In this document: positions 2,495 through 63,777 of the stretch, in pieces | Position numbering within the stretch: position 1 is the first letter of the stretch | How the letters are laid out: every line of letters starts with the position of its first letter | Assembly (NCBI GenBank): GCA_963784765.1 | Contig: CAWASP010000021.1 | Span: 7,645-71,644 of the forward strand | Reading direction: 5' to 3' | Length of the DNA stretch: 64,000 nt | Origin: an uncultured Thermoleophilia bacterium | Lineage (GTDB): Bacteria; Actinomycetota; Thermoleophilia; Gaiellales; Gaiellaceae | Program-made: the position numbers and the translations under genes | The notes under the pieces: generated by a model | Seen by the model: the letters and a program-made list of their open reading frames with translations, nothing else | Told to the model about the DNA's origin: nothing | The model's database searches: none

Positions 2495-4990
2495 CTACTC
2501 GCTGCGCGACTCTTCGCGCTCGCGCCGGGGGCCGCGGCCGCCGCGGCCGCCGCGGCGGTCGCCGCCACGCGGGCGCTCCTCGCGAGGCTCTCGCGGCGGA
2601 GCGGACTTCGCCCGCTCGACGAGCTCCTCCGGCGAGACGAAGCCGCCGTTCTCGTGCTTCTGGACGAGCTTGAGCCCGATCCGCCCGCGCGCCTTGTCGA
2701 CCTCCTGGACGAGCACGTCGAGCACGTCGCCGCGCTGGATCACGTCCTCGATGTGGTTCACGCGGCCGGGGCCGACGTTCGACACGTGCAGCAGGCCGTC
2801 CGTTCCCTTCTTCAGCTCCACGAAGGCGCCGAAGTCGGTCGTCTTGACGACGCGGCCCGTGTACTCGTCGCCCACCTCGGGCTCCTTGGTGAGCGCCTGG
2901 ATCGCGGAGATCGCGGCGTCGCCCTTCGTGCCCTCGGTGGCGTAGACGAGGATCGTCCCGTCCTCCTCGATGTCGATCTGCACGTCGTGATCCGACTCGA
3001 GCGCACGGATCGTCTCGCCGCCCTTGCCGATCACCATGCCGATGTACTCGGGGTTGATCTGGATCGTCGAGATACGCGGTGCGTGGGCGGCGAGCGCCTC
3101 GCGCGGCTCCGGGATCGCCTCGAGCATCTTCCGGAGGATCGCCGCCCGGGCCTCCTTCGCCTGCGCGAGCGCCTGCTCCATGATCTCGCGGCTGACGCCG
3201 GTGATCTTGATGTCCATCTGGAGCGCGGTGATGCCGTCCGGTGTGCCGGCGACCTTGAAGTCCATGTCGCCCAGGTGATCCTCGGCGCCCTGGATGTCGG
3301 TGAGGATGACGTAGTCGTCGCCCTCCTTGACGAGGCCCATCGCGATGCCGGAGACCGGCTCCTTGATCGGCACGCCCGCATCCATCAGCGCGAGCGTCGA
3401 GCCGCACACCGACCCCATCGACGACGATCCGTTCGACTCGAGCGTCTCGGAGACGAGGCGGATCGTGTACGGGAACTCCTCCGCCGGCGGGATGACCGCC
3501 TCGAGCGCCCGCTGCGCGAGCGCGCCGTGGCCGATGTCGCGCCGCTTCGGCGACCCCATGCGGCCGGTCTCGCCGACCGAGTAGGGCGGGAAGTTGTAGT
3601 GGTGCATGTACCGCCGCTCCTGCTCGAGCGACAGGTCGTCGATCCGCTGGCCCTCCTTGGCGGTGCCCAGCGTCAGCAGCGTCATGATCTGCGTCTGCCC
3701 GCGGGTGAAGAGACCCGAGCCGTGGGTGCGGGGCATCACGGACACCTCGACCGAGATCGGGCGGATCTCCGTCTCGGAGCGCCCGTCCGGGCGCCGCTTC
3801 TCGACCGCGATCTTCTGACGGACGAGCCCCTTGTAGATCGACTCGCATGCCTTGCGGACGTAGCTCCGCGTCAGCGCGTCCTTCTCGCCCTCGACCTCGC
3901 CGGTCGGAAACGGGAGCTCCACGGTCTCGACGATCCGGTCGTAGAGCAGGTTGCGCTTGGCGGACTTCAGCTCCTTGGAGTCCTGCTCGGCCTCGGTCAG
4001 GGCCCGCAGGTCGCCCTCGAACTGCTCGCGCACCGCACTCTCGACGCTGACCGTCCGCTGCTTCTCGAGGATCTGCGCGAGCGACATGCGCGCCTGCAGC
4101 TCGCGGAGCACATCGCCCTCGTTCGAGCTCATGCTCGGCGTGCCGGCCTCGAGCGTCACCAAGTCGTCGACGAGCGCTGCGCCCGCCCCGAGCCCGTGCT
4201 CCTGGATCCGGGTCCAGATCGAGTGGCCGTGCTTCGACTCGAGCTCCTCGGTGACGGCGGGATCGAGCCACTTCGGCTTGCCGGCCCTCGAGCGGAGCTC
4301 CTCCTGCGCCTCGCAGAGCTTGACGATCTCGCCGTGCGCGACGGCCAGCGCTTCGAGAATGGTGACCTCGGGGACGCGGTTCGCCCCCGCCTCGACCATC
4401 GTCAGCCCCTCCTTCGTGCCGACGACGATCAGGTCGAGGTCGGAGCTGTGCTCGGTCTCCTCGAGCGTCGGGTTGACGACGAGCTGGCCGTCGATCAGCC
4501 CCATCCGCACGGCCCCGATCGGCCCGGCGAAGGGCAGCGGCGAGATCGTGAGGGCCGCCGAGATCGCGTTGATCGCGAGGATGTCGTGCGGGATGACGAG
4601 GTCGGCCGAGAACACGGTCGCCACGCACTGGGTCTCGTTGCGATAGCCCTTGGGCCAGAGCGGCCGCACCGGCCGGTCGATCATGCGGGCCGTCAGGATC
4701 GCCCGCTCGGTCGGGCGCCCTTCGCGCTTGAAGAAGCCGCCCGGAATCTTGCCGGCGGCGTACATCCGCTCCTCGACGTCGACCGTCAGCGGGAAGAAGT
4801 CCGCGCCCTCGCGGCCCTCCGTCCGGCCCTGGGCCGTGCCGAGCACGACGGTCTGACCGCTCGAGACGACGACGGCGCCGTCTGCCTGCTTGGCCAGCTT
4901 GCCCGTCTCGAACGTGATGTTCTGTCCGCCGACGTCGACGGACACGGAAACCGGCACCCCGGCGGGGTGCTCAGCTTCGACGATACTCAT
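2495..4990 (-). CDS. pnp: polyribonucleotide nucleotidyltransferase (PNPase) with RGG-rich C-terminal tail
   Basis: 831-aa ORF with an ATG start. It has two RNase PH-like halves, then KH and S1 regions (GKGGETIRAL...; GRVVKTTDFGAFVEL). It lies directly downstream of rpsO. Confidence 0.97.
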   Translation of the reverse strand: MSIVEAEHPAGVPVSVSVDVGGQNITFETGKLAKQADGAVVVSSGQTVVLGTAQGRTEGREGADFFPLTVDVEERMYAAGKIPGGFFKREGRPTERAILTARMIDRPVRPLWPKGYRNETQCVATVFSADLVIPHDILAINAISAALTISPLPFAGPIGAVRMGLIDGQLVVNPTLEETEHSSDLDLIVVGTKEGLTMVEAGANRVPEVTILEALAVAHGEIVKLCEAQEELRSRAGKPKWLDPAVTEELESKHGHSIWTRIQEHGLGAGAALVDDLVTLEAGTPSMSSNEGDVLRELQARMSLAQILEKQRTVSVESAVREQFEGDLRALTEAEQDSKELKSAKRNLLYDRIVETVELPFPTGEVEGEKDALTRSYVRKACESIYKGLVRQKIAVEKRRPDGRSETEIRPISVEVSVMPRTHGSGLFTRGQTQIMTLLTLGTAKEGQRIDDLSLEQERRYMHHYNFPPYSVGETGRMGSPKRRDIGHGALAQRALEAVIPPAEEFPYTIRLVSETLESNGSSSMGSVCGSTLALMDAGVPIKEPVSGIAMGLVKEGDDYVILTDIQGAEDHLGDMDFKVAGTPDGITALQMDIKITGVSREIMEQALAQAKEARAAILRKMLEAIPEPREALAAHAPRISTIQINPEYIGMVIGKGGETIRALESDHDVQIDIEEDGTILVYATEGTKGDAAISAIQALTKEPEVGDEYTGRVVKTTDFGAFVELKKGTDGLLHVSNVGPGRVNHIEDVIQRGDVLDVLVQEVDKARGRIGLKLVQKHENGGFVSPEELVERAKSAPPREPREERPRGGDRRGGRGGRGPRREREESRSE

Positions 4991-9654: not shown

Positions 9655-10659
9655 CTAGAGGGTCTGGGAAGCGCGCGCGAACTCTTGGTGAATGAAGTCG
9701 ATGATCTCCTCGACCGGGCGCTCGGACGAGAACCCGGCCGCCTGCCGGTGCCCGCCCCCGCCCTCCTTCCGCGCGATCGCCGAGACGTCGACCTCGTCAT
9801 GGCTCGAGCGGAGGGAGATCCGGCGTGTCGGCCCCTCGTCGCGCGGCGGCTCGCGGATGAGCGCGACCATCTCCGACCCCTCGACCGCCCGCAGGTAGTC
9901 GATGATGCCCTCCGAGTACGGCTCGTCCGCTCCGAGCTCGTCGTAATCTGCTCGAAGCAGGTAGGTGACGACGAGCCTCCCGCCCTCGAAGAGCTGCGCG
10001 CGCTCGAGCGCCCGGGCGAGCAGCTTCAGCTTCGCGAACTGCACCCGTTCGTAGACCTGGCGGAAGATGCCGTGCACGTCGGCCCCGGCCTCGACGAGCT
10101 CCGCCGCGAGTCGCAGCGCCTTCGGCGTCGTGTTCGTGTACTGGAACCGGCCGGTGTCCGTGACGAGCGCGACGTAGAGGGCCTCGGCGATGCGCGGCGT
10201 GAGAGCGACCCCGAGCTCGGCGAGCACGTCGCGCACGATCTCGGCCGTCGACGAGGCGTCCGCGACGATCAGGTTGACGTCCCCGAAGCGGGTGTTGTCG
10301 TGGTGGTGATCGACGTCGACGACGAGCCGGAAGCGCGAGCCGAGCTGCTCGTCCGGCCCGATGCGGCGCTCGCTCGCGCAGTCGACGGCGAAGAGCACGC
10401 ACTCGCCGAGGTCGTCGGGGAGCGTGCGCCGCACCTCCGACAGGTCGAGGAACCCGTACTCGGCCGGCAGCGGCGTGTCTCCTGAGATGTACATCTCGGC
10501 ATCCTTGCCGAGCGAGTGCAGCGCCGTCGCCGTCGCGAGCATCGAGCCGAGGGCATCGCCGTCCGGGTTCTCGTGGGTGACCACGAGGAAGCGCTCGTGC
10601 GCTCGAACTGCCTCGGCGACAGCGCTCACCTCAGTCATCGTCGTCGTCGTCTTCGTCAT
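9655..10659 (-). CDS. nrnA: DHH/DHHA1 phosphoesterase (NrnA-type oligoribonuclease / pAp phosphatase)
   Basis: 334-aa ORF with DHH-family motifs (HENPDGDALGS, DVDHH, GGGHRQAAGF). It sits between rbfA and truB. Confidence 0.85.
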   Translation of the reverse strand: MTKTTTTMTEVSAVAEAVRAHERFLVVTHENPDGDALGSMLATATALHSLGKDAEMYISGDTPLPAEYGFLDLSEVRRTLPDDLGECVLFAVDCASERRIGPDEQLGSRFRLVVDVDHHHDNTRFGDVNLIVADASSTAEIVRDVLAELGVALTPRIAEALYVALVTDTGRFQYTNTTPKALRLAAELVEAGADVHGIFRQVYERVQFAKLKLLARALERAQLFEGGRLVVTYLLRADYDELGADEPYSEGIIDYLRAVEGSEMVALIREPPRDEGPTRRISLRSSHDEVDVSAIARKEGGGGHRQAAGFSSERPVEEIIDFIHQEFARASQTL

Positions 10660-31951: not shown

Positions 31952-32024
31952 GCGCCCGTAGCTCAGGGGATAGAGCGTTCGCCTCCGGAGCGAAAGGTCG
32001 CAGGTTCGATTCCTGCCGGGCGCA
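31952..32024 (+). tRNA. tRNA-Arg (anticodon CCG)
   Basis: Manual cloverleaf: GCGCCCG-UA-GCUC-AGGGGAUA-GAGC-G-UUCGC-CUCCGGA-GCGAA-AGGUC-GCAGG-UUCGAUU-CCUGC-CGGGCGC-A. It is 73 nt and CCA is not encoded. Confidence 0.93.
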
Positions 32025-32486
32025 CTCGTCAAGAGGTCGTGAGGCCCGGGCTCCCCTCGCGTCGGCAGGTCGGTCAGCGGCGTCGAGAACGCTCGGCCGC
32101 GAGGGGTGTGCATCGAGGTCGCGGGCGGCCGCGGCGAGCCCCTTACCGAGGCTGCTGCCCGGGAATGCTCAACGCGCGAAGAGGGCGCCGAAGCCGAGCG
32201 CGAACCCGAGTGCCGAGAGGAGGGCAGTCACGCGAAGCATTGGATTCCCTTCATCGGCCGGGAGGCCGGTCTGCTTGAGGTTTCGTCAGATTTTGCGGGG
32301 CCTCTGCCGGGGTCGGCGGGCCGCTCGGCACCTCGGCGCGACCGCACCCGTTAGTGCGCCTTCAACCCAGGCAGAGAGCCCGGACTCCGGCTCCCGGTTC
32401 CCCCCGGACCGGGCAGCCGCACGGAGCTAACGCGACCGCCGCGGCGTGTGCACCGGCCGAAGGGACAGTCGTGCCCCGACGCTCGC

Positions 32487-32735
32487 TCAGGCCGTCGGCT
32501 GAAGGTCGACGCCGAGCGCCTGCAGGCGCCCCCGGACTGCGTCGATCTCGCGCTGCAGCTCCCGTCGCTCGTCCGACACCTGCCGTTCGTGGCGCAGGGT
32601 GAACTCGTTCGGGAATCCCTTGTCGATGCGCTCGTGGAGCTTCCCACGGAGGTCCGAGAGCTCCCGCTCGCGACGCTCGAGCTCCTCGAGCTCGGCCAGA
32701 AGCGTCGCGCTCACCTGCTCCGGATTCTCGTCCAT
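32487..32735 (-). CDS. 82-aa coiled-coil protein with two RsiG-type c-di-GMP-binding signatures
   Basis: ATG 32735 is preceded by GGGAGGAG. The track start (GTG 32750) adds 5 aa. The protein is MDENPEQVSATLLAELEELERRERELSDLRGKLHERIDKGFPNEFTLRHERQVSDERRELQREIDAVRGRLQALGVDLQPTA. See findings for the motifs. Confidence 0.7.
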   Translation of the reverse strand: MDENPEQVSATLLAELEELERRERELSDLRGKLHERIDKGFPNEFTLRHERQVSDERRELQREIDAVRGRLQALGVDLQPTA

Positions 32736-32828
32736 CGACTCCTCCCTCACGCGGCCGTACCGCCGTTTCCAGGCTGATTTTACACCGGGTCGGTCCTGCT
32801 GTCCTCAAGCGAACGGCTGGTCCTGACG

Positions 32829-34841
32829 ATGAGAAGCAGGCCCGTGCCGAACGCCGCCTTCCCCCCGAGGCTGGTTCCGCTCGCCCTCGCCTCCGCTGCA
32901 CTTCTCGCGATGTGCGCGCAGTTCGTCGCGCGCACGGACGGCGGCACGCCGCTGCGACTGCAGGCGCAGTGGACGTACGACGCGGTCGCGCTGCTCACGG
33001 CCGCCAGTTGCTTCCTGCACGCGCGTCGGCGCGACGAGCGCCGCGTCTGGGTCGCCGTCGGGCTCGCGATCCTCGCCTGGGCGGCGGGCGACCTCTACGG
33101 GACGGCGCTGCTCGCGCACGGCCGGCCGATCCCGCATCCGTCGCCGGCCGACGGTGGGCGCCTGCTCTTCTACCCGCTGGCCTACGTCGGGCTGGGGCTG
33201 CTGTTCCGGAAGGAGGTGAGCGGCGTCATCCCGAGCATGTGGCTCGACGGGCTGATCGCCGCCCTGATCACCGCGGCGATCACCGCCGGCGTCGCCTTCG
33301 AAGCCGCACTGCACGAGGCTGGCGGCCGGACGATCTCGGCGGCGGCGCTGGGCACGGAGCTCGCCTACCCGCTCGGCGACATCCTGCTGCTGGCGGTCGT
33401 CGTCGGGGCGTTCGCGCTGAGCGGCTGGCGGATGTCTCTCCGATGGCTGCTCTTCGGGGGCGGGATCCTGCTGTTCACAGCAGCCGATTGCGCGTATCTC
33501 GTCCGGACGGCGGTCGGGTCCTACCGGTACGGGTCGATGCTCGACCTCGCCTGGCCGGCGGGCATGATGCTGCTCGCCTCCGCCGGCGTCGTGCCGTCAC
33601 GGCGGCTCCCGGCGGGGCGTCTCGAGGGCAACCGCCTGCTCGTCCTCCCCCTGCTCTTCGCAACCGTGGGTCTGGGCCTCGAGGTGGTCGACCACTTCAT
33701 GCGGCTGAACGCACTCTGCATCTTCCTGGCGTCTGCCGGGCTCGGCGTCGTGATCGTGCGGATGGGCATGACGTTCAGCGACTACGTGCGCCTCCTGGCG
33801 AAGACGCGCGCGGAGACGCTCACTGACGCCCTCACGGGCCTCGCAAACCGGCGTGCCCTGCTCGCCGACCTCGGCGCGACGCTCGAGTCCGGGCGATCGC
33901 ACGTCCTCCTCCTCCTCGATCTGAACGGATTCAAGTCCTACAACGACCGCTTCGGCCATCCGGCCGGGGATGCGCTGCTCGTGCGTCTCGGCAGCCGGCT
34001 GCGCGCCTGCGTCGACGGTTCCGGCCGCGTGTACCGGCTCGGCGGAGACGAGTTCTGCGCCCTCTTGCCCGGGCGCGGCGAGGACGTGCCGGGGCTCGTC
34101 CGCACAACCGTCGCAAGCCTCACCGAGTCGGGGGAGCGGTTCCACATCGCCCCCTCCGTGGGCAGCATCGTCCTTCCGGACGACGCGGCCGATCCGCCCG
34201 AGGCGCTGAAGCTCGTCGACCGTCGGATGTACCGGCAGAAGACGGGGGCGCGCAGCCCGAGCCCGGACGACTACGGTGGGTTGCTCGGCGTGCTCGAGGC
34301 GCGCGACTCCCAGCTCGCGGCGCACACGTCCGAGGTGGCGGACCTCGCGGAGGCGATCGGCCTCGAGCTCGGAGCCGAGCGGGTATCGCTCCCGACCCTG
34401 ACGGTGGTCGCACAGCTGCACGACATCGGCAAGGTCGCCGTCCCCGACGCGATCCTGCTGAAGCCCGGCCCGCTCGACGAAGAGGAGTGGCAGATCGTCC
34501 GCCAGCACACCGTCGCCGGGGAACGGATCGTCGGACGCGTACCCGGCCTCGAGGCCGTCGCGGACGCGATCCGGGCCTCACACGAACGCTGGGACGGCAC
34601 CGGGTATCCGGACGGGATCGCCGGCCACGAGATCCCGCTGCCCGCGCGCATCGTCGCCGTGGCGGACGCGTACGCGGCGATGACGAGCTTCGACCGTCCG
34701 TACCGGGCGCCGCGCGCGCCGGAGGCCGCCCTGGCGGAGATCGTGGCGTGCTCGGGCACCCAGTTCGACCCCGAGATCGTCGCCGCGCTCGTTCGCGTGC
34801 TCGAGCCCGCTTCGGTGGTCGTCGGCAACCCGGGAGGCTGA
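32829..34841 (+). CDS. polytopic membrane sensor with GGDEF diguanylate cyclase and HD-GYP phosphodiesterase domains
   Basis: 670-aa ORF with an ATG start. About 300 N-terminal residues carry many hydrophobic segments. The GGDEF domain (NRRAL...DLNGFKSYNDRFGHPAGD...RLGGDEF) and the HD-GYP domain (LHDIGKV...SHERWDGTGYPDG) are both present. Confidence 0.92.
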   Translation: MRSRPVPNAAFPPRLVPLALASAALLAMCAQFVARTDGGTPLRLQAQWTYDAVALLTAASCFLHARRRDERRVWVAVGLAILAWAAGDLYGTALLAHGRPIPHPSPADGGRLLFYPLAYVGLGLLFRKEVSGVIPSMWLDGLIAALITAAITAGVAFEAALHEAGGRTISAAALGTELAYPLGDILLLAVVVGAFALSGWRMSLRWLLFGGGILLFTAADCAYLVRTAVGSYRYGSMLDLAWPAGMMLLASAGVVPSRRLPAGRLEGNRLLVLPLLFATVGLGLEVVDHFMRLNALCIFLASAGLGVVIVRMGMTFSDYVRLLAKTRAETLTDALTGLANRRALLADLGATLESGRSHVLLLLDLNGFKSYNDRFGHPAGDALLVRLGSRLRACVDGSGRVYRLGGDEFCALLPGRGEDVPGLVRTTVASLTESGERFHIAPSVGSIVLPDDAADPPEALKLVDRRMYRQKTGARSPSPDDYGGLLGVLEARDSQLAAHTSEVADLAEAIGLELGAERVSLPTLTVVAQLHDIGKVAVPDAILLKPGPLDEEEWQIVRQHTVAGERIVGRVPGLEAVADAIRASHERWDGTGYPDGIAGHEIPLPARIVAVADAYAAMTSFDRPYRAPRAPEAALAEIVACSGTQFDPEIVAALVRVLEPASVVVGNPGG

Positions 34842-34846
34842 CGCGG

Positions 34847-35119
34847 TCAGCGGGAGGCGACCAGCCGGTCGTGCAGCTCCCTCAGGGCGCCCGGTGTGTC
34901 GAGGCTGCCGACGTGCACGGTCGGGAGCCCGAAGCGCTCGAGGTGGAGCGTGCCGCGGTCGAGCAGGATCTTCCCGAGCTCGCGCAGCGCGATGTGCTCG
35001 ACCATCGGAGACGGCGTCGTCGCGGCGAGCGCGAGATGGTTCTCCGACAACTCGACGCGTCCGGCGACCCGCGGGCCGTCGTCGACCCACCAGAACATGG
35101 CGTAGCTCGGAGGCGTCAT
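34847..35119 (-). CDS. hypothetical 90-aa protein
   Basis: Start at ATG 35119 (MTPPSYAMFWWVDDGPRVAGRVELSENHLAL...). The rest of track ORF 34847..35563 is antisense to the cupin gene. No family recognised. Confidence 0.45.
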   Translation of the reverse strand: MTPPSYAMFWWVDDGPRVAGRVELSENHLALAATTPSPMVEHIALRELGKILLDRGTLHLERFGLPTVHVGSLDTPGALRELHDRLVASR

Positions 35120-36327: not shown

Positions 36328-36993
36328 CTACTCCTCGACGTCCTCGGCGAGCAGGCCGTGCGCGATCGCGTGACGGACGAGCTCGGCGCGGGTCGAGAGC
36401 CCGAGCTTCTGCATGATGTGCGCGCGGTGGGTCTCGGCCGTGCGGACCGAGATGTAGAGCTTCTTCGCGATCTCCTGGTTCGTGTGCCCGAGCGCGAGCA
36501 GCCGGAGCACCTCGCGCTCGCGATCCGAGAGGGGGTCGGCGGCGGCAGCGGCGCGGGCCTGCGCCTCCGCGGCGACCATCCGGGCGCCGAGCGCCGGGTG
36601 CACGTACTCGCCGCCCGCCGCGATCTCACGGACGGCGCCGACGACCTCGGCGTCGGCGGCTTCCTTGAGGACGTAGCCGTTCGCGCCGTGGGCGAACGCC
36701 TCGCGGACGTAACGGGGGTCGTCCTGCATCGAGAGCACGAGCACCTTCGCACCGGGTGCTTCCTTCTTCAGCCGGGGAAGCGCCTCGATCCCGCTCTCGC
36801 CCGGCATGACCACGTCGAGGACGATCACGTCCGGCTGGTGCGCGCGCGCCTCGAAGACGGCGTCCCGGGCGTTGCCCGCCTCGGCGACCACGTCGAAGTC
36901 GGGCTCGGCGTCGAGGAGCATGCGCAGGCCGGAGCGCACGACGGCATGGTCGTCGACGACGAGCAGGCGTGTCTTCTGGTCCTTCGGGGTCAT
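36328..36993 (-). CDS. NarL/LuxR-family response regulator (DevR/DosR-like)
   Basis: 221 codons from ATG 36993 (MTPKDQKTRLLVVDDHAVVRSGL...). It has a receiver domain plus a C-terminal LuxR HTH (LSDREREVLRLLALGHTNQEIAKKLYISVRTAETH). Confidence 0.92.
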   Translation of the reverse strand: MTPKDQKTRLLVVDDHAVVRSGLRMLLDAEPDFDVVAEAGNARDAVFEARAHQPDVIVLDVVMPGESGIEALPRLKKEAPGAKVLVLSMQDDPRYVREAFAHGANGYVLKEAADAEVVGAVREIAAGGEYVHPALGARMVAAEAQARAAAAADPLSDREREVLRLLALGHTNQEIAKKLYISVRTAETHRAHIMQKLGLSTRAELVRHAIAHGLLAEDVEE

Positions 36994-38635
36994 CGGACGG
37001 GAACCTCGACTGCAAGCGTAGTGCCTGCACCCGATGGAGCCTCGACGGTGAGCCGTCCGCCGAGCAGCCCGACGCGTTCCCGCATGCCGACGAGCCCCAG
37101 CGCGTCGTCCCTGACGCGGGTCGGGTCGAAGCCCCGGCCGTCGTCCTCGATCAGTGCCGACACCGCGCTGTCGCGTCGCGTCAGCAGGATGCTGACGGTA
37201 CGTGCCTGCGCATGCTTGACCACGTTCGTGAGCGCCTCCTGGATCAAGCGGTACAGGGTGGTCTCGACCTCTTCCGGGAGCCGATCGTCGCCGATCCGGG
37301 CCTCGAGCTGCACGTCGATGCCCGTGTGCTCGCGGAACGTCTCGATCAGCCGCTCGAGCGCCGGGACGAGCCCGAAGTCGTCGAGCGCCTTCGGCCGCAG
37401 CTCGACCGCGAGGCGGCGAACATCCTGGAGCGTCGCAACGACGAGCCGTCGGAGGTTCGCCGCGGCGGCCCGTAGCGCCTCCTCGTCCCTGGCCTCCTCG
37501 ACGCTCTTCAGGCCGAGCAGGATGGAGGTCAGCGCCTGCCCCGTCTCGTCGTGGAGCTCGCGGGCGATACGGCGGCGCTCGAGCTCCTGACCGCCGACCA
37601 CGCGGCGGAGCGCATCCCGGGCAACCCGCTCGGAGAGGTCGACGGCCGTCGCCGCACGCGCGGCGAACTGCTCGGAGACGCGCACGTCGTCGTCGCCGAA
37701 GCGGTTGTCGGCTCCGACCTTGTCGTGGGCGACGATCACGCCGATCGGGCGCTCGCGCACGACGAGAGGCACGAAAAGCCCGGTTCGCGCCGCGAATCGC
37801 CGCGCGGAGTCGTGGTCGACCTCGGGATCCTCGAGCATCTCGTCGACACGTTCGCTCCGGCCGCGGGCGAGCACCCGGCCGGCCTTGGACGACGCCCGCG
37901 GGAAGGTCCAGCCGAGGAGCGTGTCCCCCCCATCCCCGACGGCCGCGTCGACGCGCAGCCGATCGTCGCCGGACGGGAGGACGATCAGCACGATGCGGGC
38001 ACGGATGAGATCGCGCAGGCTGGATGCGACGAGCTCGAGCAGCCGGTCGAGCTCGAGCTCCCCGATCAGCGCGATCCCGATCTCGTTGAGCGACTCGAGC
38101 TGCCGCGACCACCGGGTCGCCGACTCGTAGAGCCGTGCGTTCTCGACCGCGACCGCCGCCTGCGCGGCGAGCAGGGTGACGAGCTCCTCGTCCTCGGCGG
38201 TGAAGCCGCCCTCCTTCTCGGTCAGGTACAGGTTGCCGTACGCGATGCCGCGGAGCAGGATCGGCACGCCGAGGAAGGTGTGCATCTCCGGGTGGTTCGG
38301 CGGCACGCCGACCGACCGCGGATCCGTCGTCAGGTCCTTCAGGCGCAGCGGCCGTGCATCCTGGATGAGCACTCCCAGGATGCCGCGGCCGCGGGGCAGC
38401 TCGCCGATGCGGGCGTGCTCTTCCATCGAGATGCCCGTCGTGACGAACCGCTCCAGCCGCTGCCCGGAACGATCGATGACGCCGAGCGCGGCGTACGGGG
38501 CGCCGGTGATCTCGGCCGCCGCCTCGACGATGCGCTGGAGCGTCGCGTCGAGCGACAGCTCCGACGTGACGGCTATGCCTGCCTCGACGAGCGATCGGAG
38601 GCGGCCGATCACCGCGATTTGCTGCGCTTCCGCCA
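36990..38635 (-). CDS. GAF-GAF sensor histidine kinase (HisKA_3/HATPase; DevS/DosS-like architecture)
   Basis: 548 codons from ATG 38635 (MAEAQQIAVIGRL...). It has two GAF-like regions, then RRRIARELHDETGQALT (H-box) and the ATPase region EALTNVVKHAQA...DDGRGF...GLVGMRERV. Confidence 0.9.
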
Positions 38636-38818
38636 TTCGTCCTCCGTCGGCAGCTTGCCACGCCTCCGCGCGTCGGTCACGCATTCGAGGTGCGCGTGAC
38701 GCCGCAGCGAGACGTCCCCTTCGGGCGCGACGAGCGCGTGCTCGCTCGTGGCGTGGAGCATCCCGTCGCAGAACGGGCAGACGTAGCTCGCCGGCTTGAG
38801 GCTCTGGGCCGGTCGCAT
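38609..38818 (-). CDS. small Cys/His-containing protein (putative zinc-binding), first gene of the kinase operon
   Basis: Start at ATG 38818 (MRPAQSLKPASYVCPFCDGML...RRHAHLECV...) or GTG 38839. The motif is CxxC ... HxHxxC. It overlaps the kinase start by 27 nt. Confidence 0.5.
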   Translation of the reverse strand: MRPAQSLKPASYVCPFCDGMLHATSEHALVAPEGDVSLRRHAHLECVTDARRRGKLPTEDEWRKRSKSR

Positions 38819-38950
38819 CGTCCACCAGCGGGGCTCCACGGGCGCGACGATACCCGCGGCGGGCCTCCCTCTACCGGCTCCGGGTGGGAGTCCCGGGTAG
38901 AATGTCGAACATGTCCGTGTTGCCCGTGCTCGAGGACCCGCTCAGTACCG

Positions 38951-62787: not shown

Positions 62788-63777
62788 CTACGCGCGGCGC
62801 CCGGACTTCAGGGCGACGAGCCCGGCGCGAGACTTGTGGGTCTTGTCCTCGTACATCGAGCGGTCGGCGAGCCGCAGCAGCTCGTCGATCGACCCGGGCG
62901 TCCTGGCGTCGACCTCGCACGCGCCGATCGAGACCGAGAGCGGGAAGGGGAACGAGTGCTCCTTCCTCGCGGCGGCCGTACCCGTCGTGATCCGGTCGGC
63001 GACCTTCGCGACCGACTCTCCTGCCCGGTCGAAGAGCAGGACGCAGAACTCGTCGCCTCCGATGCGCGCCGCGATGTCGCTCTCCCTGACCGAGTCGCGG
63101 ATCACACTCGCGATCGCCCGCAGGGCGTCGTCGCCGGCGCCGTGGCCGCTCATGTCGTTGATCTGCTTGAGCCCGTCGAGGTCGAGGAAGAGCAGCGCCA
63201 CCGAGGTGCCGTCGCGGCGAGCCCGGTAGAGCGCCTGCTCGCCGAGGGTCTGGAGCCCGCGCCGGTTCTTCAGACCGGTCAGCTCGTCCACGAGCGTCAA
63301 GCGCTCGAGCCGCTCGGCCTGCTCCCCCAACTGCGCGGCCTGGTCGGCGAGACGATGCTCGGTCCGCTTCTTCTCGGTGATGTCTCGTGAGATCCCGAAC
63401 AGGCCGACGATCCGGCCGCCCCGGTCGCGCAGCGGGACCTTCGTGGTCGAGACCCAGGCCTCCCTTCCGTCGGCCCACGTCTCGCGCTCCTCGATCCCGA
63501 CGAGCGGCTCTCCCGTCTGCAGCAGACGCTGGTCGTCGGCGAACGCCTTCCGCGCATGCTCGTCCGAGAAGAAGTCGAAGTCGGTCTTGCCGATCGCCTC
63601 CGCAGGGTCCTCGAGCCCCCACCGGCGCGCCAGCGTGTGGCTGATCCGGACGAACCTGCTCCGCACGTCCTTGACGTAGATCTGGTCGGGCATGTGCTCG
63701 AGCAGCGTGTCCAGGAGGTAGCGGTCGTCCCGCAGCTCCTCCGGCCCGAACGGGAACGGGCGCACGGTGTCGTCCAT
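62788..63777 (-). CDS. PAS-GGDEF diguanylate cyclase
   Basis: 329-aa ORF. It has a PAS region (LLEHMPDQIYVKD...GLFGISRDITEKK) and a GGDEF domain with an I-site (RESDIAARIGGDEF). Confidence 0.9.
   Translation of the reverse strand: MDDTVRPFPFGPEELRDDRYLLDTLLEHMPDQIYVKDVRSRFVRISHTLARRWGLEDPAEAIGKTDFDFFSDEHARKAFADDQRLLQTGEPLVGIEERETWADGREAWVSTTKVPLRDRGGRIVGLFGISRDITEKKRTEHRLADQAAQLGEQAERLERLTLVDELTGLKNRRGLQTLGEQALYRARRDGTSVALLFLDLDGLKQINDMSGHGAGDDALRAIASVIRDSVRESDIAARIGGDEFCVLLFDRAGESVAKVADRITTGTAAARKEHSFPFPLSVSIGACEVDARTPGSIDELLRLADRSMYEDKTHKSRAGLVALKSGRRA

Follow-up and report, generated by a model that had tools for sequence, protein, structure and literature searches.

The window, the whole 64-kb stretch of DNA that was analysed, encodes at 32487..32735 an 82-aa protein that is very probably a genuine member of the RsiG superfamily with a new, minimal architecture. 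Two copies of the c-di-GMP-binding signature lie in one short chain, one on each helix of a predicted hairpin. The reading preferred here, to which we give a probability of roughly 0.55, is that the protein is a minimal monomeric RsiG with twin motifs, that it binds a dimer of c-di-GMP, and that its probable target is a WhiG-type sigma factor from another part of the genome. It is one of a large family of small proteins from uncultured soil Actinomycetota, referred to below as mini-RsiG, that bears on the evolution of the RsiG switch and on the minimum protein needed for c-di-GMP sensing.

The RsiG coiled-coil motif pair is a recently defined mode of c-di-GMP binding. To our knowledge, RsiG is the only anti-sigma factor armed by c-di-GMP. 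The RsiG of Streptomyces venezuelae has its repeats at residues 64-79 and 162-177, in two helices of an antiparallel coiled coil. The Gln of the repeat stacks on two splayed guanines, the Asp specifies those outer bases, and both the nucleotide and WhiG are further contacted by a long loop (D106-R115). The RsiGs of Rubrobacter and Thermoleophilia carry one motif and homodimerise, and their flexible N- and C-terminal arms grip sigma-2 and sigma-4. These published facts agree with the preliminary description of the window, which had given a larger RsiG in Streptomyces and single-motif, dimerising homologues in Rubrobacter. Canonical RsiG is nearly always encoded by a single-copy gene, and every characterised RsiG binds WhiG. 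In the published account of its evolution, Rubrobacteria and Thermoleophilia have only small single-motif homodimers, and the twin-motif monomers of about 200 aa arose later through internal duplication.

The gene and its predicted hairpin

The small gene and its expression signals are the following.

32487..32735, (-) strand: 82-aa mini-RsiG ORF (ATG 32735-32733, TGA 32489-32487), sequence MDENPEQVSATLLAELEELERRERELSDLRGKLHERIDKGFPNEFTLRHERQVSDERRELQREIDAVRGRLQALGVDLQPTA
32739..32746, (-) strand: Shine-Dalgarno sequence GGGAGGAG, by direct sequence reading, ending 3 nt before the ATG
32777..32805, (-) strand: sigma-70-like promoter AGGACA-17-TAAAAT for the small gene (1 found, 0.0 expected in shuffles)

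The preliminary description had reported an 82-aa ORF with a strong Shine-Dalgarno sequence; its coordinates and the Shine-Dalgarno letters are confirmed, and the strand, which it had left unstated, is (-). An alternative in-frame GTG at 32750 was recorded as lying within the Shine-Dalgarno sequence, and the orthologues start at the position of the ATG. The GC content by codon position is 0.80/0.38/0.89 in surroundings of 71% GC, a pattern that marks the ORF as a genuine gene. Comparison with the orthologue in locus L007, the closest at the DNA level (85% protein identity), gave a dN/dS of 0.21 and showed that the 82-aa ORF is a real gene under purifying selection. Both hexamers of the promoter are kept in L007, a locus without the GGDEF gene that lies beside mini-RsiG in the window. 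Rfam scans found only tRNAs and no c-di-GMP riboswitch.

The features of the protein map to the DNA as follows.

32622..32669, (-) strand: motif 1 in helix 1, residues 23-38, E23-x3-S27-x2-R30-x3-H34-x3-D38, ERELSDLRGKLHERID
32607..32621, (-) strand: tight loop K39-G-F-P-N43 between the helices (loop 39-43 of the AlphaFold2 model)
32541..32588, (-) strand: motif 2 in helix 2, residues 50-65, E50-x3-S54-x2-R57-x3-Q61-x3-D65, ERQVSDERRELQREID

An exact signature in helix 2, with Gln, and a second one in helix 1, with His in place of Gln, had been described from the letters, and both were found again at these residues. The pattern E...S..R...[QH]...D has two matches in the six-frame translation of the 64-kb window, both within the mini-RsiG ORF. 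The AlphaFold2 model, built with 13 homologues, is confident (mean pLDDT 86.9) and consists of helices 5-38 and 44-73 joined by the loop 39-43 (KGFPN), in agreement with the two long helices and short linker proposed earlier. The hairpin has flanks of about 10 residues on each side and a loop of five residues. Foldseek comparison of this model with the PDB returned generic hairpins only (the seryl-tRNA synthetase arm, ESCRT, the LSD1 tower), all at E>0.3; since any helical hairpin matches such structures, the search is uninformative on kinship with RsiG.

The motif starts are 27 residues apart. Since the residue numbers of the two Ser (S27 and S54) add up to 81, a pseudo-dyad would fall at residue 40.5, in the middle of the predicted loop, and E23/E50, S27/S54, R30/R57, H34/Q61 and D38/D65 would become symmetric mates. 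From secondary structure and this arithmetic, the two motifs would stand in a two-fold pseudo-symmetric register, with the two Ser in the centre and the two Asp at the ends, separated by about 21 residues. The heptad pattern appears to place E23, R30, E50 and R57 at "a" positions, with Leu, Val or Ile at the flanking "d" positions, and E23/R30 and E50/R57 together would form one polar groove.

Kinship with RsiG and the extent of the family

Taken alone, the window protein has Pfam RsiG (PF22802) as its best match, with a score of 18.5 bits (cutoff 27; E 0.0017), beside other weak coiled-coil matches in Pfam. Among the sequences of proteins with solved structures, the window protein by itself did not hit RsiG, and searches of this set with the single sequence or a shallow 13-member profile gave RsiG only at E 0.13-0.35, amid apolipoprotein and coronin coiled coils. 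A profile of 120 members was needed to separate RsiG from generic coiled coils. When this profile was compared with the sequences of solved structures, the four best matches were all RsiG chains, three from Rubrobacter (7lq3_B, 1.8e-7; 7lq4_D, 2.1e-7; 7lq2_B, 4.8e-4) and one from S. venezuelae (6pfj_T, 3.7e-5), and the best non-RsiG coiled coil in the same search had an E-value of 0.059 or worse. The single motif helix of Rubrobacter RsiG is matched by each of the two family helices, which also align onto alpha1 and alpha5 of S. venezuelae RsiG. PF22802 is matched at E<=1e-4 by 91 of the 120 members (best 1.7e-13) and by 13/13 close homologues, and no other Pfam family is matched by more than one of the 120. 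These profile comparisons showed the family to be homologous to RsiG. The kinship proposed in the preliminary description thus holds at the level of the family (E down to 1.8e-7; PF22802 in 91/120), the single protein itself being sub-threshold. Sub-profiles of helix 1 and helix 2 align with each other over 23 columns (hhalign probability 97.6%, E 2.9e-12). By this profile alignment the two helices are shown to be mutually related, as expected from, and consistent with, an internal duplication.

The first search returned 12 small homologues of 76-118 aa. An exhaustive profile search yielded 330 clusters (50% identity) at E<=1e-3, 129 of them at E<=1e-10, with a median length of 88 aa. A single hairpin with both motifs had been called unusually compact; compact it is, and both motifs are present, but it is no singleton, being part of a large family that the Pfam RsiG model partly detects. 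The labelled relatives come from uncultured Thermoleophilia, Gaiellaceae or unclassified Actinomycetota, and the source databases label family members as hypothetical or misname them. A literature search found no description of mini "RsiG-like" proteins or of a Gaiellales RsiG in the papers that were searchable.

The mean column identity in the 120-member alignment is 17%, and the motif residues are the most conserved columns. S27, R30, S54 and R57 are present in 100% of the homologues. In motif 1, E23 is kept in 97%, H34 in 93% and D38 in 74%; in motif 2, E50 is kept in 99% and D65 in 98%, and position 61 is His in 95% and Gln in 5%. The motifs first noticed in one sequence are therefore conserved among the orthologues (signature residues 93-100%, D38 74%), and at such low overall identity the most conserved polar positions are exactly those of the RsiG signature. 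His for Gln is frequent in RsiG, and a His-type protein from Conexibacter binds a c-di-GMP probe with a Kd of 25 uM (PMC8325347). Of 90 twin-motif members, 85 have motif starts spaced by 26-28 residues. In the loop, the family most often has F/Y41, P42 and N43, and the close subfamily always has FPN.

Several members depart from the plain hairpin or occur in more than one copy. A second, long-loop paralogue lies in divergent orientation in L008, L009 and L032, and a second family copy is 1.2 kb away in L015. P0024 is a tandem double hairpin, and P0106 joins the hairpin to a signal-peptidase-II-like membrane domain. A small Zn-ribbon ORF is divergent from the family gene in L005, L020, L025 and L029 and is fused to the hairpin in P0126. 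In a subfamily with C-terminal tails, LuxR-type response regulators are encoded just downstream. Genomic context was sampled from 6 genome loci, 78 metagenome loci and several contigs by exact protein look-up, and no neighbour is conserved across the whole family.

Genomic surroundings and WhiG-type promoters

Two neighbouring genes of the window were considered as partners.

32829..34841, (+) strand: multi-pass membrane protein with GGDEF (E 2e-29) and HD-GYP-type HD_5 (E 7.8e-37) domains, a c-di-GMP synthase/hydrolase
34847..35098, (-) strand: conserved 83-aa ORF that flanks a variable slot and lies directly upstream of mini-RsiG in L007 and L010

The GGDEF, HDIGK and GYP motifs of the larger protein are all intact. 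Its gene and mini-RsiG are divergent across a gap of 93 bp (32736-32828). The preliminary description had reported this pairing, and the gene and the gap are as it said. The pairing however reflects an insertion or deletion specific to the strain. At the syntenic locus L007, whose mini-RsiG is 85% identical, the segment 32830-34845, which corresponds to the GGDEF-HD-GYP ORF, is replaced by 61 bp. The gene was rejected as a conserved partner on account of this precise insertion/deletion, and since it is missing from the closest syntenic orthologue its adjacency is weak evidence of partnership. L002/L014 has a REC-HD-GYP gene as its divergent neighbour, at a distance of about 100 bp. Two non-redundant loci (the window and L002/L014), out of the 43 whose upstream DNA is long enough, thus have a divergent HD-GYP neighbour, which exceeds chance by a rough estimate of <0.1 expected. 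A second diguanylate cyclase (PAS-GGDEF) is encoded elsewhere in the window.

The 83-aa ORF has a dN/dS of 0.17 and no match in Pfam or NCBIfam. It was rejected as a partner and taken as a syntenic flank, since the slot that it borders differs in content between genomes. The slot is bounded by the conserved cupin/83-aa-ORF block on one side and by tRNA-Arg(CCG) and a dipeptide-epimerase operon on the other, and its contents are as follows.

Window: GGDEF-HD-GYP gene and mini-RsiG
L007: mini-RsiG and a PIN/RHH toxin-antitoxin pair
L089: a prepilin gene, two small ORFs and an inverted mini-RsiG of a different subtype (58% identity)
L090: a prepilin gene and unrelated cargo, without mini-RsiG

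No WhiG/FliA-type sigma gene had been seen in the window, and tblastn bore this out: neither the bona fide WhiG of L005 nor a Streptomyces WhiG probe found a match in the 64 kb. L005 encodes, 1.17 kb away from its family member, a sigma factor that scores above the NCBIfam WhiG equivalog cutoff (362 vs 343 bits). This sigma factor has LVKYVAGR and so retains the K-x3-G-R residues, which contact c-di-GMP in the S. venezuelae WhiG complex. Adjacency to whiG was rejected as a general rule, as it is seen in L005 only and is lost in the close relatives L025 and L029.

WhiG-type promoters were searched by the published rule TAAA-N15-17-GCCGATAA with <=2 mismatches. Such a promoter lies upstream of 18 of 70 (26%) non-redundant family genes, in the coding direction and at a constant offset. 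Among random 155-bp segments taken from these loci, 0.67% have a match (p about 1e-23); with thirty permuted motifs the mean was 0.27/70, and the opposite strand gave 2/70. In L008 and L009 a perfect match ends 5 nt before the annotated start. Given these counts against the background, a large share of the family appears to belong to the WhiG regulon, as would be expected if an anti-sigma factor were subject to feedback. The window gene is an exception and lacks a WhiG-type promoter, its best upstream match having 5 mismatches, and WhiG-like matches are not enriched across the window (38 with <=3 mismatches, 30 in shuffles). On these grounds a WhiG-type promoter was rejected for the window gene and its neighbour alike.

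Reported WhiG targets are pili, DGC/PDE genes and whiG itself, and type IV pili are under the control of RsiG-WhiG in Rubrobacter. L089 and L006 have prepilin-type genes at 0.65 kb and 2.3 kb, respectively, from the family member, and in L004 the family gene is divergent from an immediately adjacent pilin-like gene. By analogy, these neighbours may be said to echo the control of pili in Rubrobacter. The HD-GYP adjacency, the prepilin neighbours and the second diguanylate cyclase would together match known WhiG2/RsiG biology in theme.

Proposed function, rival readings and known systems

In the proposed mechanism the ORF product would be an antiparallel coiled-coil hairpin of about 70 residues, monomeric and with little else. 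The monomer would bind one c-di-GMP dimer in the polar groove made by both helices; the Arg residues would read the central guanines, the Gln and His would stack on the splayed guanines, and the Asp residues would specify the outer bases. The nucleotide-loaded face may then, at even odds, clamp a WhiG-type sigma-28 factor encoded elsewhere in the genome. The protein would thus act as an anti-sigma factor, or a modulator of sigma, armed by c-di-GMP, and as in Rubrobacter its role would probably be linked to type IV pili and c-di-GMP turnover. In the window strain its gene would be read from the sigma-70-type promoter, back-to-back with a c-di-GMP enzyme gene presumably acquired or retained at the variable slot next to tRNA-Arg.

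The steps of this mechanism are not equally firm. Binding of c-di-GMP is quite likely, judged by the conservation of the motifs and the published binding by a His variant. That the window protein sequesters WhiG has, in our estimate, about an equal chance of being right or wrong. Homology, promoters and context argue for it. Counted against it are the lack of whiG in the 64 kb, the lack of a WhiG-type promoter at the window gene and the loss of whiG adjacency in L025 and L029. The sigma-contacting segments of RsiG (the alpha1-alpha5 loop and C-terminal helices in S. venezuelae, the arms in Rubrobacter) were looked for in the window protein and are absent, so the protein is not simply "an RsiG" and the sigma partner is putative. 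A different role for some family members, at the least, is argued for by the absent contact elements, the paralogue pairs and the fusions; canonical RsiG is nearly always single-copy, and against this the pairs and fusions hint at partners other than one sigma factor. The preliminary description had held that the partner need not be a sigma factor. The missing sigma-contact elements fit that view, but the promoters, the one adjacent whiG and the prepilin genes point back towards a sigma factor more than it had supposed.

The closest rival also accepts an RsiG-type receptor of c-di-GMP and gives it no sigma target: it would be a portable sensing module or a nucleotide buffer with other partners, and in the window strain it might pair with the GGDEF-HD-GYP enzyme encoded next to it to give local feedback or sequestration. 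We consider this possible but clearly less probable than the preferred reading. It would account for the absence of sigma-binding extensions, for the HD-GYP genes divergently adjacent in 2/43 loci (rough chance expectation <0.1), for paralogue pairs on one contig (L008/L009/L032 and L015), for the Zn-ribbon, tandem-hairpin and membrane-domain fusions and the LuxR-type neighbours, and for a window promoter that is sigma-70-like and not WhiG-type. It is at odds with the binding of WhiG by every characterised RsiG and with the strong, strand-specific enrichment of WhiG promoters, which ties the family to WhiG; the GGDEF-HD-GYP gene, moreover, is missing from the syntenic orthologue and no neighbour is family-wide.

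Two further explanations dispense with the nucleotide or with RsiG altogether. The protein could be a generic small coiled coil that binds no nucleotide and whose likeness to RsiG comes from Glu/Arg-rich helical composition. The sub-threshold Pfam score beside other weak coiled-coil matches, the shallow searches with RsiG at E 0.13-0.35 amid other coiled coils and the generic hairpins found by Foldseek would fit this. We think it improbable, since the invariant columns are a polar signature (Ser, Arg, Glu, His, Asp) and not a hydrophobic core only, the deeper profile sets RsiG at 1.8e-7 apart from other coiled coils at 0.059 or worse, PF22802 is matched by 91/120 members and other families by one at most, and the motif occurs nowhere else in six frames of 64 kb. 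Even less credible is that a mobile or variable islet carries the gene as cargo for some unrelated role, such as that of an antitoxin-like or defence-associated small protein. The slot beside tRNA-Arg(CCG) is hypervariable and holds PIN/RHH and PemK toxin-antitoxin genes and other cargo in relatives, and there is a weak NCBIfam ParD match (E 0.054). The ParD score, however, is 13.6 against a cutoff of 46.2 bits, a toxin partner is absent from the window, the family is marked by the RsiG motif pair, and a plasmid collection searched for mini-RsiG homologues contained none.

The mini-RsiG family is a third RsiG architecture, duplicated and without loops or arms. Members from genomes labelled Thermoleophilia or Gaiellaceae place twin motifs in lineages reported to have single-motif forms only. 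The family poses the question whether sequestration of WhiG truly depends on the extensions seen in the crystal structures, or whether there are other partners. The WhiG-type promoters on many family genes suggest a sigma/anti-sigma feedback loop, which is not described in the RsiG papers examined. A unit of about 70 residues also offers a minimal test of sufficiency for binding a c-di-GMP dimer, and a possible scaffold for biosensors.

More tentatively, the twin-motif hairpin may be an autonomous, portable c-di-GMP module and more than an anti-sigma factor, the smallest known protein receptor of the c-di-GMP dimer, present in hundreds of lineages with several paralogues per genome and varied outputs. 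If so, the outputs in uncultured soil Actinomycetota would include HD-GYP/GGDEF enzymes, Zn-ribbon proteins, LuxR-type regulators and membrane domains. Twin-motif forms would then already exist in the basal Thermoleophilia, overturning the view that the single-motif form is ancestral and the twin-motif form derived elsewhere.

Among known systems, the monomeric, twin-motif RsiG of S. venezuelae (6PFJ/6PFV) shares with mini-RsiG the two E-x3-S-x2-R-x3-[Q/H]-x3-D repeats, each borne by its own helix of an antiparallel coiled coil within one chain (predicted for mini-RsiG), and mutually related helices that suggest internal duplication (profile E 3.7e-5). Its repeats are 98 residues apart, separated by helices and the capping long loop, whereas those of mini-RsiG are 27 apart with a five-residue loop, and its C-terminal sigma-4-binding helices are absent from the 82-aa protein. 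The RsiG of Rubrobacter radiotolerans and Thermoleophilia (7LQ2-7LQ4) is, like mini-RsiG, small and from the same basal actinobacterial lineages, and Rubrobacter RsiG is the best profile match of the family (E about 2e-7). It differs in being an obligate homodimer with one motif per chain, whereas mini-RsiG has both motifs in one chain and is without arms.

Other systems are alike in logic or in size. The flgM gene is transcribed by the sigma factor that FlgM inhibits, and the likeness to FlgM/FliA feedback is one of logic only, in that many mini-RsiG genes have a sigma-28/WhiG-type promoter. FlgM is intrinsically disordered and is controlled by secretion, not by a nucleotide; it has no kinship with mini-RsiG in sequence or structure, and the window gene has no sigma-28-type promoter. 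PilZ domains and MshEN are compact c-di-GMP-binding units of about 50-120 residues that occur stand-alone or as modules. Their folds and motifs differ from those of mini-RsiG, and the window protein has no Pfam PilZ or MshEN match.

The variable slot and its edges

The slot is the region between the block formed by a cupin gene and an 83-aa ORF and the tRNA-Arg(CCG) with its dipeptide-epimerase operon. It is hypervariable between relatives, with a cargo that includes, among other things, toxin-antitoxin pairs and prepilin genes. The features at its edges, or syntenic with it, in the window are:

31952-32025, tRNA-Arg(CCG), adjoining the variable slot
34847-35098 (-), conserved 83-aa ORF
36328-38825 (-), GAF-GAF histidine kinase (HisKA_3) and NarL/LuxR-type response regulator pair

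When the window (32830-34845) was compared with its close relative L007 (9841-9901), the syntenic locus whose mini-RsiG is 85% identical, the complete GGDEF-HD-GYP ORF was found to be a clean insertion or deletion, its edges falling a few bases from the start and stop codons. The 83-aa ORF has a dN/dS of 0.17 against L007. It belongs to a family of hypothetical proteins of about 85-107 aa that has no match in Pfam or NCBIfam and always has the cupin gene alongside, at the edge of the slot. Synteny of the kinase/regulator pair with the slot is kept in L007, L089 and L090.

A conserved non-coding stretch downstream of mini-RsiG

Two features lie downstream of the 82-aa mini-RsiG gene:

~32300-32385, conserved non-coding stretch
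32251-32278 (-), WhiG-type promoter match TCAAGCAGACCGGCCTCCCGGCCGATGA, adjoining the stretch

The stretch is 87-95% identical to L007, L010 and L088, and in L010 it is conserved more strongly than the mini-RsiG ORF itself. It has no match in Rfam, and its predicted folding was not significant (z -0.85 and -1.14). The promoter match has 2 mismatches, is conserved in L007 and is directed towards the antisense of the tRNA-Arg and of the epimerase operon.

Candidate partners and other regulatory genes

The genes concerned, in the window and at loci of mini-RsiG relatives, are:

L005 9641-9826 (-), 4-Cys Zn-ribbon mini-ORF (CxxC...CxxC)
L089 7015-7299 (+), separate 94-aa ORF with a Trp-containing motif, abutting mini-RsiG
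L041 3494-4201 (-), SigB/SigF/SigG-type sigma factor gene
window 62788-63777 (-), second diguanylate cyclase (PAS-GGDEF)

In one subfamily (L005, L020, L025, L029, L034) the Zn-ribbon mini-ORF is the conserved divergent neighbour. In the family protein P0126 a Zn-ribbon is fused to the N-terminal side of the hairpin, a Rosetta-stone-type arrangement that hints at a partner. Some members (P0051, P0083, L036/L052-type tails) end in a short Trp-containing motif (GWTEVEPGIY, DWEEVEPGIF, NWVEVTPGIY; compare SQWSGISPE), which may be a docking peptide; the 94-aa ORF of L089 carries this motif too.

The L041 sigma gene is convergent with a family member, about 350 bp downstream; this member has a degenerate helix-1 motif (E to A). 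An 89-nt "tRNA-Glu" called by ARAGORN (window 63237-63325) is probably a false positive, because Rfam does not support it and its span falls within the PAS-GGDEF ORF.

Paralogue pairs

Two family paralogues occur on single contigs at L008, L009, L032 and L015:

L008 9599-9895 / 10001-10237, divergent mini-RsiG paralogues; likewise L009 and L032
L015 2033-2206 / 3449-3622, two copies 1.2 kb apart

One arrangement consists of a 78-aa short-loop form and a 98-aa long-loop form, divergent, with about 100 bp between them. Canonical RsiG, according to published work, is single-copy in 133 of 134 genomes.
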